In this document: positions 35,574-53,292 of the stretch, piece after piece
Numbering within the stretch: the first letter of the stretch is position 1
Layout: every line of letters starts with the position of its first letter
NCBI GenBank assembly: GCA_963706595.1
Contig: OY970166.1
Location: 2,496,001 to 2,560,000, forward strand
Length of the DNA: 64,000 nt
From: an uncultured cyanobacterium
GTDB taxonomy: Bacteria; Cyanobacteriota; Cyanobacteriia; Cyanobacteriales; Nostocaceae
Reading direction: 5' to 3'
Notes under the pieces: model-generated
Told to the model about the DNA's origin: nothing
What the model saw: only the letters and a program-made list of their open reading frames with translations
The model's database searches: none
Program-made: the position numbers and the translations under genes

Positions 35574-35711
35574 TTAACGGCGACGTGTGCGCTCATGTAC
35601 AGGAATCGGAATTAGTTCCGGTTCCGGCTCGCATTCTGGCCCTAATAAGCCATCAATCAGCTTGCGTGCCAACGCCTTCAATTTTTCTAGCACTTTATCT
35701 ATATAGTCCAT
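35574..35711 (-). CDS. atpT: 45-aa small protein, likely AtpTheta/Norf1 ATP synthase inhibitor family
   Basis: [52 protein letters not shown] upstream; amphipathic helix plus [11 protein letters not shown] motif. Below the ORF-track length cutoff. Confidence 0.6.
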
Positions 35712-35784
35712 TGAACTTATCGCTCCTGAGATACTACCTCAATATTTTGACTAACAGCTACGCAGAACTCGCGTACTTTTGCAC

Positions 35785-35897
35785 CTGCTATATAAAAACT
35801 AGACAAAACTAGACTTTATTTCTGACTTCATCGGGAGCATGGGAGCAGCTATCCCTCAGTAAGCTTTGACGCTGTAGCCCAACGCGATCAATTAATT
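35785..35897 (-). mobile_element. Orphan IS607/TnpB right end (omegaRNA-like scaffold)
   Basis: About 82% identical by manual alignment over 84 nt to 53209-53292; ends TTTATATAGCAG; no tnpA or tnpB ORF nearby. Confidence 0.75.
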
Positions 35898-36070
35898 CTG
35901 GAAGTGAGCTACCTCTAGAATTGAGAGTTGTGATTCACCCTACTTTTTAGATTATCACATTACAAACCTACATAATGGCATTTCACTAATGATGGATGTT
36001 CCCCATTGAGAGCCAAAAGTCCAGAGTTAGTAAGTTTTCACCACTACGGACTTTTGATTCTTGACCCTAA

Positions 36071-38722
36071 CTAACCTTCAGCATCATTTTTTTTAGCGCT
36101 CGTCTGAGATGATTTAGCAGTTGACTTAGCTCGTGAAGTTGTTGATTTACTCGTTTTGCGAGTAGTTTTTTTGGTAGATGCTTTGCTTGCTAATAATTCT
36201 AGCGCTGTAGATAATGTCACATCTTCTACCGATTGGCCTTCTGGGATGCTCACATTAACTTTGCCGTGCTTGATATAAGGTCCATAGGGTCCATCATAAA
36301 TATTCACAGGCGTACCTTCTTCAGGGTGCATACCCAATTCGCGTAAAGCTGCCTTAGACTTGCTACTGCTAGAGCCACGTCCCTTTTTCGGTTCGGATAA
36401 TAATTCCAACGCTCGTTCCAGGGAAACTGTCAGCACATTATCAGCAGCTTTGAGAGAACGATAGTCTTTGCCTTCCTTGCCTTGGTCGTGAACGACGTAA
36501 GGGCCAAAACGCCCCAAACTGGCTTGAATTTTCTTACCTGTGTCTGGATGTAATCCCAATGTCCGGGGTAGAGCCAAGAGACCCACAGCCATGTCTAAGG
36601 TGACATTTTCGGGAGTGACACCTTTAGGTAGAGAAGTTTGTTTGGGTTTAGGATTTTCGTCGGTTTTATCACCCAACTGTACATAAGGACCGTAAGTACC
36701 AATTTTCAGATAAATTGGTTCACCAGTTTCAGGATGCCGACCTACTTGGTCAGGCCCCACGGTTTTTTGCCGCAGTAACACTTCTACCTGTTTCGGGTCG
36801 AGGTCAGAGGGTGTCAGGTCTTTGGGAATTGATGCAGTAACCACAGTGCCATTATTGTCAACTTCGATGTAGGGTCCATATTTGCCAATGCGGACTTTAG
36901 CATCTAAATTTTCCAGTAATACCGTTCTGGCTTGAGTGGCATCGATTTGACTTTCCTGTTCTCTGACTAAAGTTTCTAAACCTTTGTCTCCCAGATAAAA
37001 TTCCCGCAAATATGGCAACCACTTAGCTTCGCCTGTGGCAATATCATCCAGGGTTTGTTCCATCTTGGAAGTGAAACTGGGGTCTACAACATCCGGGAAA
37101 TACTTTTCTAAGAGGTTAGTGACGGCGAAAGCTGTAAAAGTAGGAATCAAGGCGTTACTCACCAATTGGGCGTAACCCTTATCGATGATTGTGCCGATGA
37201 TACTGGCGTAGGTACTAGGGCGACCAATGCCTTCACTTTCTAAGGTTTTTACTAGAGTAGCTTCGGTATATCTGGCTGGTGGTTGGGTTTCGTGACCCAC
37301 AGCTTCTAAATCAGTACAATCTGGATGATCACCCACTTTTAAACTGGGTAAAATGACTTCCTGATCTTCTAAAGCTGCATCTGGATCATCTGAACCTTCC
37401 ACATAAGCGCGCAAGAATCCCGGAAAATCAATGCGCTTACCAGAAGAACGAAAGCCAGCATCTTCAACTTGCAACTGGACGCTAATTTGGGTTTGCCGAC
37501 AGTCAGCCATTTGACTGGCAACAGTGCGCTTCCAAATCAAGTCATAAACCGCAAGTTCCCGACCACCTAAACCAGTTTCTTGGGGAGTACGGAAAGTACT
37601 ACCCGCCGGACGAATGGCTTCGTGGGCTTCTTGTGCGCCTTTCGATTTGGTGGTGTATTGCCGAGGTTCGGGACTGAGGTAGTTTTTACCATAAAGTTGT
37701 TCTACACAGCTACGAGCAGCCGTCAGCGCCTGATCAGATAAATGCACGGAATCTGTACGCATATAGGTGATATAACCTTGCTCATACAAATTCTGGGCAG
37801 TTCGCATTGTGTCTCTAGCTGAGAGGCGCAGTTTGCGGTTGGATTCTTGTTGCAGTGTCGAAGTAGTAAACGGTGGCGCAGGTTTACGCGTTACCGGGCG
37901 TTCGTCGATGCTGTTAACATTCCAGGTTTTCCCGGTCAAGCGTTCCTGGAGAGCGATCGCTTCCTCTTCGTTGAGCAACAAGACATTGCGCCCGGCGGTA
38001 ATTTGTCCTGTGGCGGCATCAAAATCGCTACCAGTGGCTACTTTGGTTCCTCCCAGGCTGGTCAATTGGGCAGCAAAGGCAGTTTTATCCTGCACCAAGC
38101 TAGCTTTTAAATCCCAATATGTCCCTTCATGGAAAGCGCGGCGTTGGCGTTCCTTTTTGACTAAAAGTCGCACAGCTACAGATTGCACTCGCCCAGCAGA
38201 TAATCCCCAGGCGATTTTTTTCCACAGCAAAGGCGACAAGGTATAACCAACCAATCGATCCAAAATGCGCCGTGTTTCTTGGGCGCGAACTAACTGCTCA
38301 TCAATATCACGGCAGTTATTCAAAGCTTTTTTGATAGCTTCTTGGGTAATTTCGTGAAACACCATTCGCTTGGTGGGAACTTTGGGTTTCAGCAGTTGGT
38401 ATAAATGCCAACTGATGCTTTCACCTTCCCGGTCTTCGTCAGTTGCCAGAATCAGTTCATCAACACCTTTGAGGGCATCTTTGAGCTGGGTAACAACTTT
38501 CTTTTTGTCTTTGGGGACAACATACACCGGTTCAAAGTCTGCGTCTACATTTACCCCCAGCTGCGCCCACCGTTCTGCTTTCACAGAGGCGGGAATTTCA
38601 CTAGCCGATTGGGGTAGGTCACGGACATGACCCATAGACGCTTCCACCCGATAGTCTTTTGGCAGGTAGTTGCGAATGGTACGAGCTTTGGTCGGAGATT
38701 CAACGATGACGAGAGTTGACAT
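36071..38722 (-). CDS. topA: DNA topoisomerase I
   Basis: [41 protein letters not shown]. Confidence 0.98.
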
Positions 38723-46418: not shown

Positions 46419-46463
46419 GTGATGAAGTAAGCAATGGCTAAACGCCGTTGCTTACTTCATCAC
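46419..46463. terminator. 20-bp stem hairpin between convergent genes
   Basis: GTGATGAAGTAAGCAATGGC-TAAAC-GCCGTTGCTTACTTCATCAC. Confidence 0.65.
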
Positions 46464-49400
46464 TATCCTATGGGTATTTCAATTACAAACTCAGTACCCT
46501 GTCCCAGTTCAGAATTACAGGTTAACTTACCCTGATGTTTATCCACAACAATCTGATAACTGATTGACAAACCCAACCCTGTACCACTACCTACTGGTTT
46601 CGTAGTAAAAAATGGGTCAAATATTTTTTGCCGCACAGATGCTGTCATACCAAAGGCGTTATCAGCAAACCTAATCTTGAGCATATTAGACTTTGTTAGT
46701 TCAGTGCAAATACGAATTGTGGGACTGCTAATGGTTTGCTCTTTAACTTGTGTCTCTTGCAAGGCATCAATTGCATTGCTAAGAATATTCATAAATACTT
46801 GATTAAGTTGACTAGGGTAACAAGTAATAATCGGTATATCTCCGTATTCTTTGATGATTTTAATTTCACTACAAGTTTGATCTCCAAGTCGTTTTACGTT
46901 TGTAGTATTTTGCTTAAATCGATGCTGCAAAATCATTAAAGTGTTATCCAGCCCCTCATGAATATCAACAGGTTTCATTTCAGATTCATCCAGGCGGGAG
47001 AAATTACGTAAGCCTAAAACGATATTTCGGATACGCGAACTTCCAACTTTCATAGAATCTATAGTTTTAGGTAAGTCTTCTACTAGAAAATCTAGATCAA
47101 TTTCTTCAGCTTTTTCGACAACTTTAGATGCTGGATAGGGATATTCACGTTGATAGACAGCAAACAAGTCTAATAAATCTTCGACATAATCACTAGTATG
47201 AACAAGATTGCCATGAATAAAGTTGATAGGATTGTTAATTTCATGGGCAATTCCTGCTACCATTTGCCCCAAGGAAGACATTTTTTCACTTTGAATTAAT
47301 TGGCTCTGAGTGCGTTGCAATTCCTGTAAAGTTTGCTGCAAATTTTTATTTTTCTCTTTAATTTCTAATGTTCTTTCGGCTACTTTTTCCTCTAAAGTGT
47401 GGTTGTATACCTCCAATCGCTCATTAGCTTGAGCTAAATTTTTGTAAAGCATGGCATTCTCTAGAGAGATTGCTGCTTGGCTAGTCAAAAGTTTGAGAAC
47501 TTCTAAGCGATCGCGTGTAAATGCCCCTGTGGTCAAATTATTTTCTAGGTAAACAATGCCCAGCAATTTACTTTGATTAATCATTGGGATACACAACAAA
47601 CTTTTTGCTTCCTGATGAATAATGTAGATATCTGCCGCTAAGGTAGCTTGAGCTTTTACATCATCAACAACGAATATTTCGCGTGTACGTTTTACATAAT
47701 TAATTAAAGAAATAGGAACATCGGTACTAGATTCTAGAGCAGTTGCTATAAAATTTATGTTAGTATCAATAGAATTTGAACTGTAACTAACGGCAGTAAC
47801 TGTTAAGGTTAATTCATCACTTTCACTCAAAATTAAAACACATTTCGATGCTCCCGCGTTTTCCATGACAACTTCCATTAAAGTCGAAAGAAGTTCCTGT
47901 AATTCAATTTCCCCAGAAAGTGCTTGAGACGCTTTAATGACAGTTGCTAAGTCCAGCATATCTGACATACTAGTATTAGAACTAACCATAGCTTCATTAG
48001 TAATTAAGATAGATTTATTACTAGGGTTAGATTGAGTTATGCTACTTTCAGAGGTACTTATTTCACTAGAATGTAGGTTCAGCTTTTCTGCTTGAATAAT
48101 AGACTTCAGTAATTGAGAATAGCGTTTTTCTAAGTCGTTTACTTTTGCTAATGCACCCCACCGAACATAGCTATAGTAAGCATCAGTTAGGTAAGTTTGG
48201 GCAATCTTCTGCTTACCCCATTCTAAATAAAACTTACTGGCAAGTTCTTGAGCCAGAGCTTCTTCATGGATATATTCATGTTCATGAGCCAGGGAGATGG
48301 CACGGTCATAATATTCCATTGCCTCCAAATATTGAGCCAAAATACGATATTTTTCAGCCTCTATCAAATAAAATTTATGTAAATGATTTATCGGCACATG
48401 ATCTGCCCATTTACGTATCTTTTGTTGATTAGCTAGTACTTTAGCCAAGATTTGTTCTTGTTGAGATGGCTCGGCATCATCATATATAGCCAGCAATGCT
48501 AGAGAACTATAAAAATATAATTGCGGAACCACAAACTGTCCAATTCCACTAGGTAAATACTGCTCTGCTATGACAGCATTTTTAACTGCTTCAGGGTAAT
48601 TGCCAAATAGATAACACAAATAAAGTTTACATAGATAAACATACAAAAGTGCAATTCCATCATTAGCTTTTATCTGAACTGGCAGGATTTTTGTCTCATC
48701 ATAAGCTTCACCAATCAAATGGCAGGGATTTTCAACAGCACCCATTAAATTTAATACTGTCTGTCGATAAATTTGAATCCAGTAAAAAACGCCATCCTGC
48801 TTAATTTGGCAGGCGGCATAACTGTAGTTTGCCATTTCCCGCTCAAGTTGGGTCAGTTCCTGACCGCTAAAATAGGAAATGTAGCAGTATGAATATAAAG
48901 AATAAGCAGCGAATTCTAAATCTCCTGTTTCTAATCCAACAGCATAAGCTTCTAAAAGAGGCTGTAAAACTTCCTTAATCGGTTCCTTCCAATGCCTGAC
49001 ATGAGCATTAAATGTTTGGATAATTTTAGATTTAATTTCTTTAAGATTAAAGCGTGATGATAGACTTATAGCTAATTTGCCAAACTGATAACCAAGTTCA
49101 ATATCTTCCAAAGGACCACACAGCATTAAACCATAGGCAACATATGCAAAGGCCGATAAGGGAGAATTACCATATTTAAGCGATAAATTAACTTGTTTCA
49201 AGCAAATCAGAGGCATCAGTTCAGGAACAGACTGATAAGCCAGAGCAATTGCACTGGACAAAATACGCATGATTGCCAATGGTTCTGCTTGCTTCATCTC
49301 TGGTAAATCAATTAATTCTTCTATGTTGCGATTAACCAGAATTGAAGTTGTTATTTCCATTTCTTTCTGAACATCAGTCTGGCTAGGATGCTCTGGAAAT

Positions 49401-52110
49401 TGCACTCCCAACAATGTCAAAAAGGCTAGTGCAGTTTTGACAGCTTTTATTGCTTTACCCTGCGCCCCATAAGCCTGGATTGTGACTTCATAAACTTTTA
49501 CCTTCTCCAATAATGTATTAGCTTTTGCTAACACAACCTGAACCAGTTGCTCTGTCTGCTCAAATTCGCCATTCAAATATGCCGCCTCTGCCGCAGCCTC
49601 ATATAAAGCTAGGGTTAGCTCATATTTAATATCCCAACTATCACCCGCCAGCAGTTTAATTCCAGTCGTTAAATACTTAATCGCAGCTGAGTAAGCTGTG
49701 GATGCTAAAGCTTTACGTCCAGCAATCAGGTTCATTTCAGATAGCTCATCGCGCTTAGTTTGCTCTGTGATGAATTCAATTGCAATGTTAAGCTGATTAA
49801 CCAAAATAAAAATATTTTCTTCCCTCTGCTCAATAGGGATGTCATTAAATAGCAATAGCCCTATTTTTAGGTGAATTATTTTTTTTTGTTCAATAGGAAT
49901 TAAGGAATAAGCAGCTTGTTGCACCCGGTCATGTACAAAGCTATATTTGGGTAATTTATTATTATTATTAGTTATTAATTTGTGTGATTCTTCTCTATTA
50001 GAAACTTCTGGCTGTTTATACTCATCTTCTGACAAAGAATTGTATACTTCATTTTGAGGCAAAACTAAACCATCAAGCAAGGCTGGCCATAAATCATTTG
50101 CTGTATCTACTATAGATTTTTCATGAATAGTGGCAAGGGTTTTTAAGTCGAATTCATTACCAATACAAGCCGCGGATATCAACAAGTCATGAGTAATTTT
50201 GGGCAGTTTTTTGATTTGAATTGCCATGAATTCTACTACATCGTCTGTAAGAGTTAATGCTTGAATTCTTGTAATATCATACTGCCAGTGACCAAGATCC
50301 AAATTCAATGTAATTAGTCCATCATCATGTAAAGACTTCAGGAATTGAGTCACAAAGAAGGGATTTCCTTTTGTTTTAGCAAATACAATTTGTGTCAAAG
50401 GAACAGCAACTACTTCTTGACAATGCAATGTATCAACAATCAAATCATTTAAATCTGATTGATTGAGGGGTGAAAGAGTTATGCTATTAATAGTTGCTCC
50501 TGTTTTAGCAATTTCTTGTAATGTCAAATTTAATGGATGTGCATTTGAGACTTCATTATCACGGTATGCACCAATCACTAATAAACTCCCATTATCCTTC
50601 ATTATCCTGTGCATTTTGTCTGTAACAATAGAAGCTGTAGCTTCACTCATTAATAATTGGATAAAATTCAAAGAATCTTTATCTGCCCATTGCAAGTCAT
50701 CCAGAAAAATTACTAAAGGATGCTCTTTAGTATTAAAAATTTGTATGAATCTCTGGAACAATAAGTTAAACCGATTTTGGGCAGCACTACCAGAAATATC
50801 TGTAGCTGGAGGTTGTTTACCAATAATCATTTCTAGTTCAGGAATTACATCAGTAATTACCTGACCATGCGTACCCAATACTGATAAAATTTTCTCCTTC
50901 CACTGTTGAATTTGAATATCAGTTTCCGAAATTAGTTGGTCAATTAAATCCCTAAAAGCTTGTACTAATCCTGACAAAGGGGTATCATGTTGAGATTGAT
51001 CAAATTTACCCTTTATAAAGTAGCTACGCTGTCTGACAATCGGCTTATGAATTTCGTTGACTATAGCAGTTTTACCAATCCCGGAAAAACCCGTGACTAA
51101 TATCATTTCTGTTGTCCCGTGTGTCACGCGGTTAAAACTGGCGAGTAGAGTTTTAAGTTCACGTTGACGGCCATAAAGTTTTTCGGGAATAATAAAACAG
51201 TTAGAAATATCTCGACTTCCTAATTCAAAATTTGCAATATCTTCTTTTTCTTGCCACTGCTTGCGGCATATTTCTAAGTCATGCTTGAGTCCATATGCAC
51301 TTTGATAACGGTCTTCGGCATTTTTTGCCATTAGCTTGCTGATTATCTCAGACAAGATGGGGGAATATTAGGGTTAATCTGGCTAGCTTTTGGCGGTTCT
51401 TTTGCAATGTGCGAGTATACTAACTCTATTGGGTCAGTGCTGCTGAAGGGTAACTGTCCCGTGAGGAGTTCAAAGAAGGTAACACCTAAAGAATAAAAAT
51501 CAGTGCGGTAGTCAATACCTCGATTCATACGTCCCGTTTGTTCGGGAGAAATATAAGCTAGTGTGCCTTCTAAAACGTTAGGATTTGTAATAACTTGAAT
51601 TTGTTTCGGTAAGAGACTCGCAAGACTAAAATCGATGATTTTAATCTCATTAGTCTTGGGTTTAATGAGAATGTTAGCGGGTTTGATATCCTTGTGAATG
51701 ATGCGATGGTGGTGTAGTCCTTCCAGTGCGGAAGAAACTTCAATAGCAATATGGAAAAACGCAGTTAAAGAAACCGGATTTTTCTCCATGTCCGGCTTTT
51801 TTTGTTGCCAATCTTTAAGAGATATACCGCCAAAGTCTTCCATGACTAGGATATAGCCGTTGCCGTAGTTTTCCAAACTATGGGGTTTGACAACTCCGGG
51901 TATATCCAGGTTTTGGGTAATACTGTATTGATTACGGAACTGAGCGATTTCAGCAAAAGTAGGATATTCATTCCGCATCAGTTTGAGGATCACAGGTTTT
52001 TGATCTTGTTCTCTGATGCCCCGATAAACTAGGGTTTTGCTACCTGAATAGATTGGCTCAGTAATCCGATAGCCAATTATAGGGTATACAGTATCTAATC
52101 CTACTAACAT
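46463..52110 (-). pseudogene. Ser/Thr kinase-AAA ATPase-GAF-histidine kinase (HstK/Pkn type), frameshifted (ORFs 51343-52110 and 46463-51355)
   Basis: HKDIKPANI, EGTLAYISPEQTGRMNR; GFSGIGKT, FLDDLQW; GAF; AHEINNP; GTGLGL. A 1-nt loss in the C run at about 51360 breaks the expected NIPPILSEIISKLMAK. Confidence 0.88.
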
Positions 52111-52763: not shown

Positions 52764-53292
52764 AGAGCTATCCTAAGTTGACAATTAAATAGACATACTT
52801 ATACACTTATAGACAAAGCTATAAGTGTATTTATGTTTAAACCACATGAATTTGCCGAAAAAATGGAAGTTTCTGTGAAAACGTTGCAGAGATGGGACAA
52901 TTCTGGGAAATTATTTGCCAAAAGAACACCATCGGGACATCGATTTTATACTGAAAACGACTTGCTCAAGTAATTGCTGATTGCGGATTTCATGAATTTA
53001 AGCGCCAGCTAGAATATAAAGCTCAAAAGTTTGGTTGTGAAATAATTATTGCTGACCGTTGGTTTCCATCAACTAAAACCTGTTCTAATTGCGGACATAT
53101 TCAAGATATGCCGCTTTCAGAAAGAGTTTACAATTGCCACAATTGTGGGCATGCGATGGATAGAGATTTAAACGCAGCAATAGTTTTATCAAGGTTGGCT
53201 AAACCTTGAAAGCTTGCTGAGGGATAACCGCTCCCATGCTCCCTTTGACGCAAGAAGTAAATATCTAGCTTGGTCTAATATTTATATAGCAG
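52764..53292 (+). mobile_element. Internally deleted IS607-family element (tnpA 5' fragment joined to tnpB 3' fragment)
   Basis: 52833-52973 MFKPHEFAEKMEVSVKTLQRWDNSGKL..RTPSGHRFY (TnpA MerR-like HTH); 52973-53209 ADCGFHEFKRQLEYK...STKTCSNCG...CHNCG..DRDLNAA (TnpB zinc finger/RuvC-III); TAGACA subterminal repeats; right end ...TATATAGCAG. Confidence 0.88.

Follow-up and report, generated by a model that had tools for sequence, protein, structure and literature searches.

The window (the whole stretch of DNA analysed, 64,000 nucleotides) carries on its minus strand, between a gene that we take, by sequence recognition, to be topA and a small conserved ORF, the terminal 113 bp of an IS607 element's right end (Table 1). 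The sequence-only reading had described this place as an orphan TnpB “omegaRNA-like” scaffold resembling the right end of another IS607 remnant in the same window. Its minus-strand sequence and position were confirmed, as was the alignment to 53209-53292 (69 of 84 columns match, and the similarity stops at the same GCAG; BLAST E 4e-17 over 96 bp). The homology reaches beyond the start noted there, in the 5' direction to 35897, across the terminal tnpB codons. As also noted, neither tnpA, tnpB nor a left end was found upstream of the remnant, where topA ends at 36071.

The nearest relatives of the remnant, 88-90% identical over 112 bp, are the right ends of tnpB-linked IS607 elements of the same genus. 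They belong to a subfamily with the TnpB C-terminus ...INLSRLAKA, which differs from the subfamily of the 53-kb remnant (80% identity). IS607 family copies carry a serine-recombinase tnpA together with tnpB, and no Rfam family matches the scaffold at the gathering score. The 53-kb remnant (114 bits with the covariance model considered below) is a member of the same family and another subfamily, and it is not the direct parent of the 35785-35897 copy. To judge by its named database matches, the host is a filamentous cyanobacterium of Nostocales type. Elsewhere in the window, at 46463-52110, a Ser/Thr kinase-AAA-GAF-histidine kinase gene appears split into frames of 255 and 1630 aa near 51350, possibly by a frameshift.

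Table 1. Features of the probable atpT leader and related IS607 remnants (window positions unless a genome or locus is named).
Feature	Position	Strand	Basis
topA, upstream neighbour (presumed)	36071..38722	-	ORF
Extended -10-like element TGTGATAAT	35951..35959	-	Conservation
IS607 right-end remnant, 113 bp	35785..35897	-	Final tnpB codons and omegaRNA scaffold ending in GCAG
AATTA microhomology at the deletion join	35893..35897	-	Alignment of filled and empty alleles
Stem-loop 1, loop GGCTA	35867..35887	-	
Stem-loop 2	35822..35863	-	Compensatory changes in the family
Stem-loop 3, two GTCTAG repeats, 3' TAGC able to pair with the stem-loop 1 loop	35787..35819	-	
Predicted guide (native leader)	35765..35784	-	Equals the insertion target of empty alleles
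45-aa conserved cyanobacterial ORF, probable atpT (AtpTheta)	35574..35711	-	Size, copy number, distribution, residue spacing
Separate internally deleted IS607 remnant	52768..53292	+	Left end, tnpA stub, tnpB tail, right end
Scaffold-only remnants	G000:C1:3764642-3764780; L072, L078, L080/L274, L165, L251, L263-L265, L277-L279		

Comparison of alleles with and without the remnant defines the insertion point. Empty alleles read ...TAGAG directly followed by GTGCAAAAG, the filled allele reads ...TAGCAG followed by GTGCAAAAG at the same point, and the target within the probable atpT leader is GAG/GTG. Since GAG directly precedes 19 of the 20 left ends examined, and with a right end closing in AG, a dinucleotide core AG and no target duplication, the event is a canonical IS607 insertion with an AG core; insertion with GG cores has been described for the family in the accessible text of PMC6188088. 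About 35 bp of the host leader, including the GAG target motif, are missing from the filled allele, and the join lies at an AATTA microhomology. With the left end and the GAG motif both missing, the remnant cannot revert by excision.

The insert is present in four of 11 genomes of the genus (G000, the genome of the window, to G003) and absent from seven (G004-G010), from all 14 other family genomes in which the leader was aligned and from 19/19 further homolog loci of the small ORF. Among 201 sampled family genomes, a set without G001 and G003 in which no more than four candidates were scored for each genome, only G000 and G002 matched across both flanks. The filled junction also occurs in a metagenome contig (L112) and in a named genome record (L111), the latter left out of the carrier count as a possible duplicate of a genome already counted. 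With four carriers in the genus, the suspicion that the remnant is a strain-specific decayed scar was not borne out.

Remnants consisting of little more than the scaffold recur in the family: they are about 114 bp long and join host GAG to one tnpB-internal point (usually CAATTAA). A GAG-start pattern had 30 listed matches in 301 family genomes, and 17 of these were examined; 12 loci in 10 genomes proved to be scaffold-only remnants and five were chance matches in a coding gene, in counts that are no measure of enrichment, the pattern itself selecting for the CAATTAA junction. The copy at G000:3764642-3764780 is a precise insert relative to all five genomes searched, and two copies in genome G011 have private variants in common at different sites. 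In genus g5, what at first looked like a conserved locus of this class, present in five genomes, was rejected as a chance match within a coding gene. The class may have arisen through TnpA activity at a false end inside the element, or may represent a minimal circle that is itself mobile: we suppose that TnpA mistakes an internal GCAG for an end and either deletes up to it or excises a small circle. The allele in the probable atpT leader is most simply such a scaffold-only remnant with an additional slippage deletion of 36 bp; a single deletion from a full element is a possible alternative.

Other IS607 derivatives occur beside this class. At G000:C1:4791380-4791437 and 5399860-5399917, left and right ends are fused at a TTGAC microhomology into 58-bp sequences with most of the scaffold missing. 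G002 contains an IS607-derived miniature element of ~300 bp with both ends and a complete scaffold (e.g., L064-L066, L069-L071) in at least 40 scored copies; GT immediately follows the right end in 6/6 copies examined.

The scaffold of the remnant is complete, with three stem-loops and a predicted pseudoknot, in agreement with the universal omegaRNA layout of stem-loops and nexus pseudoknot given in the accessible text of bioRxiv 2023.11.20.567912. In 24 tnpB-linked right ends, 97.6% of cells are paired and six pairs are changed on both sides. The covariation score was reached by none of 500 shuffles, a figure inflated by the relatedness of the 24 sequences. The GCTA/TAGC pseudoknot is complementary in 24/24, but its four pairs are invariant, which makes it a prediction without covariation. 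A covariance model built from the same 24 right ends gives the window copy 110.4 bits, in agreement with the omegaRNA scaffold proposed earlier. By allele, the scores are 123 bits in G001 and 122 in G003 (like intact elements), 110 in G000 and 92 in G002, the last differing at five conserved columns and carrying an inserted 24-nt hairpin.

In the window copy, a G-to-C change at 35868 breaks a pair of stem-loop 1 kept in 31 of 33 family sequences and also abolishes the former tnpB stop, and an A-to-C change at 35824 breaks a U-A pair of stem-loop 2 kept in 33/33. The 24-nt hairpin repeat has been inserted repeatedly between stem-loops 1 and 2 at the identical point (L114, which is the G002 allele, L107, L075, L079, L190, and L265); it resembles the small dispersed repeats of Nostocales.

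Upstream of the scaffold, the extended -10-like element noted at 35959-35951 was confirmed, together with the start of the 45-aa ORF at 35711. It is found in all 12 aligned genomes and in 8/8 family loci, and in empty alleles it lies 170-178 nt ahead of the ATG. Because it is conserved in empty alleles, it is the host gene's promoter. The scaffold lies downstream of a promoter conserved in filled and empty alleles alike, in line with the host-driven transcription proposed earlier. Conservation between topA and atpT, which the sequence-only reading wished to see compared across Nostocales, holds for this promoter but not for the scaffold, which is missing from most of the genus and from the other family members examined. 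A promoter scan of the window did not flag the element because the scan requires a -35 hexamer. Transcription would start near 35944.

The RNA evidence comes from contigs of four runs (X1, X4, X12, and X15) out of 20 listed. Those of X1, X4, and X12, from three studies, span the junction of scaffold and leader, so that scaffold and ORF are bridged in three of the four runs. The X4 contig is identical to the G000 allele, and the X15 contig has just 22 nt on the scaffold side. The contigs terminate at 35933 and 35925, the X1 end at 35933 lying in adapter sequence; 35934-36060 is uncovered in all four runs, which is a weak hint only. The summed depth of X12 over the right end is very high, being made up of many short contigs of other copies, and was excluded. 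Short of proving it, these data support a leader, roughly 233 nt in length, of which the scaffold would be a part, in contigs that carry neither strand nor end information. The whole leader of the G000 allele folds no better than its shuffles (z -0.26).

The small ORF is probably atpT, an identity that we infer from indirect features, without a direct match. It is a single-copy gene present in 21 of 61 genomes of the phylum and, read across homologs, fits four of the five described AtpTheta residue spacings. Pfam and NCBIfam gave no match, no atlas or cluster name was found, and a published atpT probe primer matched 0/19 homolog loci. Databases label homologs of the protein hypothetical; in several they are called “DNA topoisomerase I” or “HicB family nuclease”, apparently by mis-annotation. 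In Synechocystis, the accessible text of PMC9241938 reports that both the level of atpT expression and its induction in the dark depend in part on the 5'UTR, and that in darkness the atpT mRNA is the most abundant mRNA.

The predicted guide is a piece of the native leader, and the sole perfect target found for it is the empty allele of G008, G009, and G010, which it matches 20/20 after GAG. Within G000 itself, the longest match next to a GAG is 9 nt, and 30 shuffled guides reached 7-13 nt. The guide is absent from 50,697 phage records (six weak unrelated matches only) and from 72,556 plasmid records, where the single match is another IS607 end. Two exact 17-mer matches in viral contigs end after guide position 14 and were taken as chance. 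Several alleles depart from the perfect target: the empty target of G006 has two seed changes, that of G007 has two mismatches, and in G005 a deletion of 21 bp has affected target motif and seed; on the filled side, the G001 guide carries a 1-nt insertion in its seed. The lesions of G005 (L117) and G006 (L118) hit a motif that is otherwise widely kept in the family, and they are possible escape alleles.

A TnpB of the cognate clade, expected from the earlier reading, is encoded elsewhere in the genome of the window. The 358-aa protein at G000:805023-806096 is full-length, retains the D-E-D catalytic motifs and seems to be an intact cognate; its subfamily has a right end merely 82% identical to the remnant. 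G000 gives 11 covariance-model matches to this right end. With cognate TnpB defined by at least 65% identity to the G000 protein, full-length copies are present in G000, G001, G002, G006, and G007, i.e., in three of the four carriers, and none was found in G003, G004, G005, G008, G009, and G010, several of which are draft assemblies. G003, a complete single contig, yielded no cognate TnpB at E<=1e-60 and no other copy of the scaffold family, and keeps an intact scaffold as its only copy. No genome combines a full-length cognate TnpB with a perfect empty target: three of the five TnpB-positive genomes are filled, and the other two are G006 and G007 with their altered targets (Fisher p=0.18 for genomes that are related and non-independent). 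Two TnpBs of 383 aa form a sister subfamily (G000:C1:3557234-3558409, 4163620-4164795); their elements have the terminal 38 bp in common and a divergent inner scaffold (67-72 bits), and the ORFs extend to within 24 nt or less of the right end.

Divergence of the four carrier alleles is 2.7-9.1% in pairs, compared with 15.6-22% at topA four-fold sites and 24% in the native segment replaced by the insert. Against intergenic medians of 12-14.5%, the scaffold falls at the 4th, 16th, and 28th percentile (3/70, 9/57, and 26/94); it is on the conserved side, yet no outlier. The four alleles differ by 11 core substitutions, of which seven are at conserved columns where 8.1 would be expected (P(<=7)=0.31), and no compensatory changes were seen; there is no sign of selection for the RNA fold, in a set of 11 substitutions that gives little power. 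Neither topA, rpoB, nor the hydrolase-like gene downstream gives a tree in which the carriers form a clade (three trees, mostly unresolved). Their flanks are mosaic, with only two diagnostic sites for a shared haplotype in 7218 columns and none within 700 bp. Scattered carriers without a shared haplotype mean that the allele either is old and under constraint, or is young and was spread in very short tracts; most simply, it arose after the species had split, was spread by recombination and is at present drifting.

Among known systems, the remnant resembles in fold CboIStron (bioRxiv 2023.11.20.567912) and ISFba1 (PMC11061315): as far as their accessible text goes, they have in common three stem-loops with a nexus pseudoknot (a predicted one in the remnant), a guide taken from the flank, a dinucleotide core common to target motif and right end (AG here), and a target differing from self at -3. 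The ISFba1-type TAM, AGGAG, terminates in GAG, as here (PMC11061315, accessible text). Unlike both, the remnant has no tnpA, tnpB, or intron in cis and is unable to excise, so that a donor joint could not arise in its own genome. Trans-acting standalone omegaRNAs and PATE-like elements have been described in the accessible parts of PMC10691335 and bioRxiv 2023.03.14.532601, the former terming the role of standalone omegaRNAs unknown. Like them, the remnant is a scaffold without its own effector that has a related TnpB in the genome and could act in trans. However, elements of that kind retain both ends or are said in the accessible text to be mobilised, whereas the remnant lacks the left end, has its target motif deleted and sits in a host 5' leader, at one site in four species-level genomes. 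A literature search, with most subscription papers outside its reach, returned no description of the locus, nor of IS607 scaffolds that lack the left end and have a fixed junction, of which the accessible parts of PMC3542288 and PMC10711439 likewise make no mention.

TldR guide RNAs are TnpB-type scaffolds fixed beside a host gene, with a nuclease-dead partner. The remnant is likewise fixed beside a host gene, but it has no adjacent effector and no promoter target beside a target motif (the 9-nt run lies within the shuffle range). The dead partner suggested by the sequence-only reading did not emerge either: all five full-length clade relatives checked, out of 39 PF07282 matches in G000, retain their catalytic motifs. 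By such comparison, the remnant works like an IS607 omegaRNA in its fold but qualifies neither as a PATE, having no left end, nor as a TldR guide.

On balance, we lean towards the view that the remnant is a tolerated, transcribed, slowly decaying passenger. This builds on the boundaries, empty site, target motif, fold, distribution, and RNA coverage observed above. An IS607 element or a scaffold-only derivative would have inserted at the GAG/GTG site of the probable atpT leader. Through a deletion between AATTA microhomologies, the host would then have lost some 35 bp; the remaining 113 bp of the element, without left end and target motif, could no longer be excised. This presumed order of events would be followed by passive transcription from the presumed start site within the host leader, with the remnant tolerated as a presumably neutral sequence. 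Ordinary homologous recombination would have carried it between sister species that exchange DNA, or it would have persisted as an ancestral polymorphism, drifting in either case. Any TnpB loading would be incidental, since its own genome offers the guide no target. In favour of a passenger are the empty site in 7/11 genus and 14/14 other family genomes, the 7/11 substitutions on conserved columns, the two pairs broken in G000, the damage in G002, the lack of a cognate TnpB in G003, the absence of an own-genome target, and the commonness of similar scaffold-only remnants in the family. Against it, the scaffold is below neutral divergence, G001 and G003 score like intact elements, and the carriers are not a clade.

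The main rival reading, which we regard as unlikely but not negligible, is that the remnant is an immobile homing marker. A TnpB acting in trans, with scaffold and guide supplied from the host promoter, would cut empty alleles (GAG with the 20-nt match) entering by DNA exchange; repair would copy the filled allele, and the insert would spread across species without a transposase. The filled allele would be spared because GCAG instead of GAG precedes its target. According to the accessible text of bioRxiv 2023.11.20.567912, empty-site cutting and homing were shown for an IS607 TnpB, and the base at -3, the same as here, distinguishes target from self. The perfect match in G008-G010 and the scatter of carriers on the trees speak for homing. 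The lack of a perfect empty target in all five TnpB-positive genomes, with the lesions of G005 and G006, is the pattern that homing would leave, but the association is non-significant (p=0.18) in related genomes. Also speaking against homing, G003 has no cognate TnpB, the G001 guide has its seed insertion, the G000 allele breaks two pairs, the G000 TnpB comes from a subfamily with a right end only 82% identical, and no co-converted flanking tract is visible. We likewise regard as doubtful the fuller proposal of a transposase-free 113-bp guide locus that, from the host promoter and with TnpB in trans, would convert empty alleles across species, have G005 and G006 as escape lesions, and belong to a recurrent scaffold-only class with a fixed left junction, perhaps moving as minimal circles.

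The low divergence of the scaffold, its intactness in G003 where the cognate TnpB is absent, and the effects of the Synechocystis atpT 5'UTR would also suit a co-opted leader element whose hairpins stabilise or regulate the host mRNA without TnpB, under mild selection; we consider this improbable, as 7/11 genus genomes and every other family member examined do without the scaffold, no compensatory change is seen among four alleles, and the leader folds like its shuffles. The original proposal, in which the RNA would guide an active TnpB, or a TldR without nuclease activity, in trans against a host gene, plasmid, or phage, is drawn from a complete scaffold, probable transcription, and a cognate-clade TnpB in the genome. 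It now seems very improbable: the guide is unchanged native flank, no target rises above chance in the own genome, the viral 17-mers stop short, phage and plasmid records hold no match, and the five relatives keep D-E-D. One can further imagine a decoy, in which an abundant, possibly dark-induced leader RNA would titrate TnpB off the guides of mobile copies and dampen IS607 homing. The abundance of atpT mRNA in dark Synechocystis and the completeness of the scaffold suggest it by analogy, but in G002, despite the insert, no fewer than 40 family copies were scored and three cognate tnpB genes are full-length, and we give the decoy very little credence.

If the remnant is a neutral passenger, it would be an ordinary IS remnant, notable for its transcription in a host leader and its presence in four species. 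If homing were true, it would give standalone omegaRNAs a testable role, namely to spread an allele of the chromosome where no transposase is involved. A small natural test set exists in the matched alleles with and without the insert, in scaffolds ranging from near-intact to decayed, and in the two targets that are damaged.
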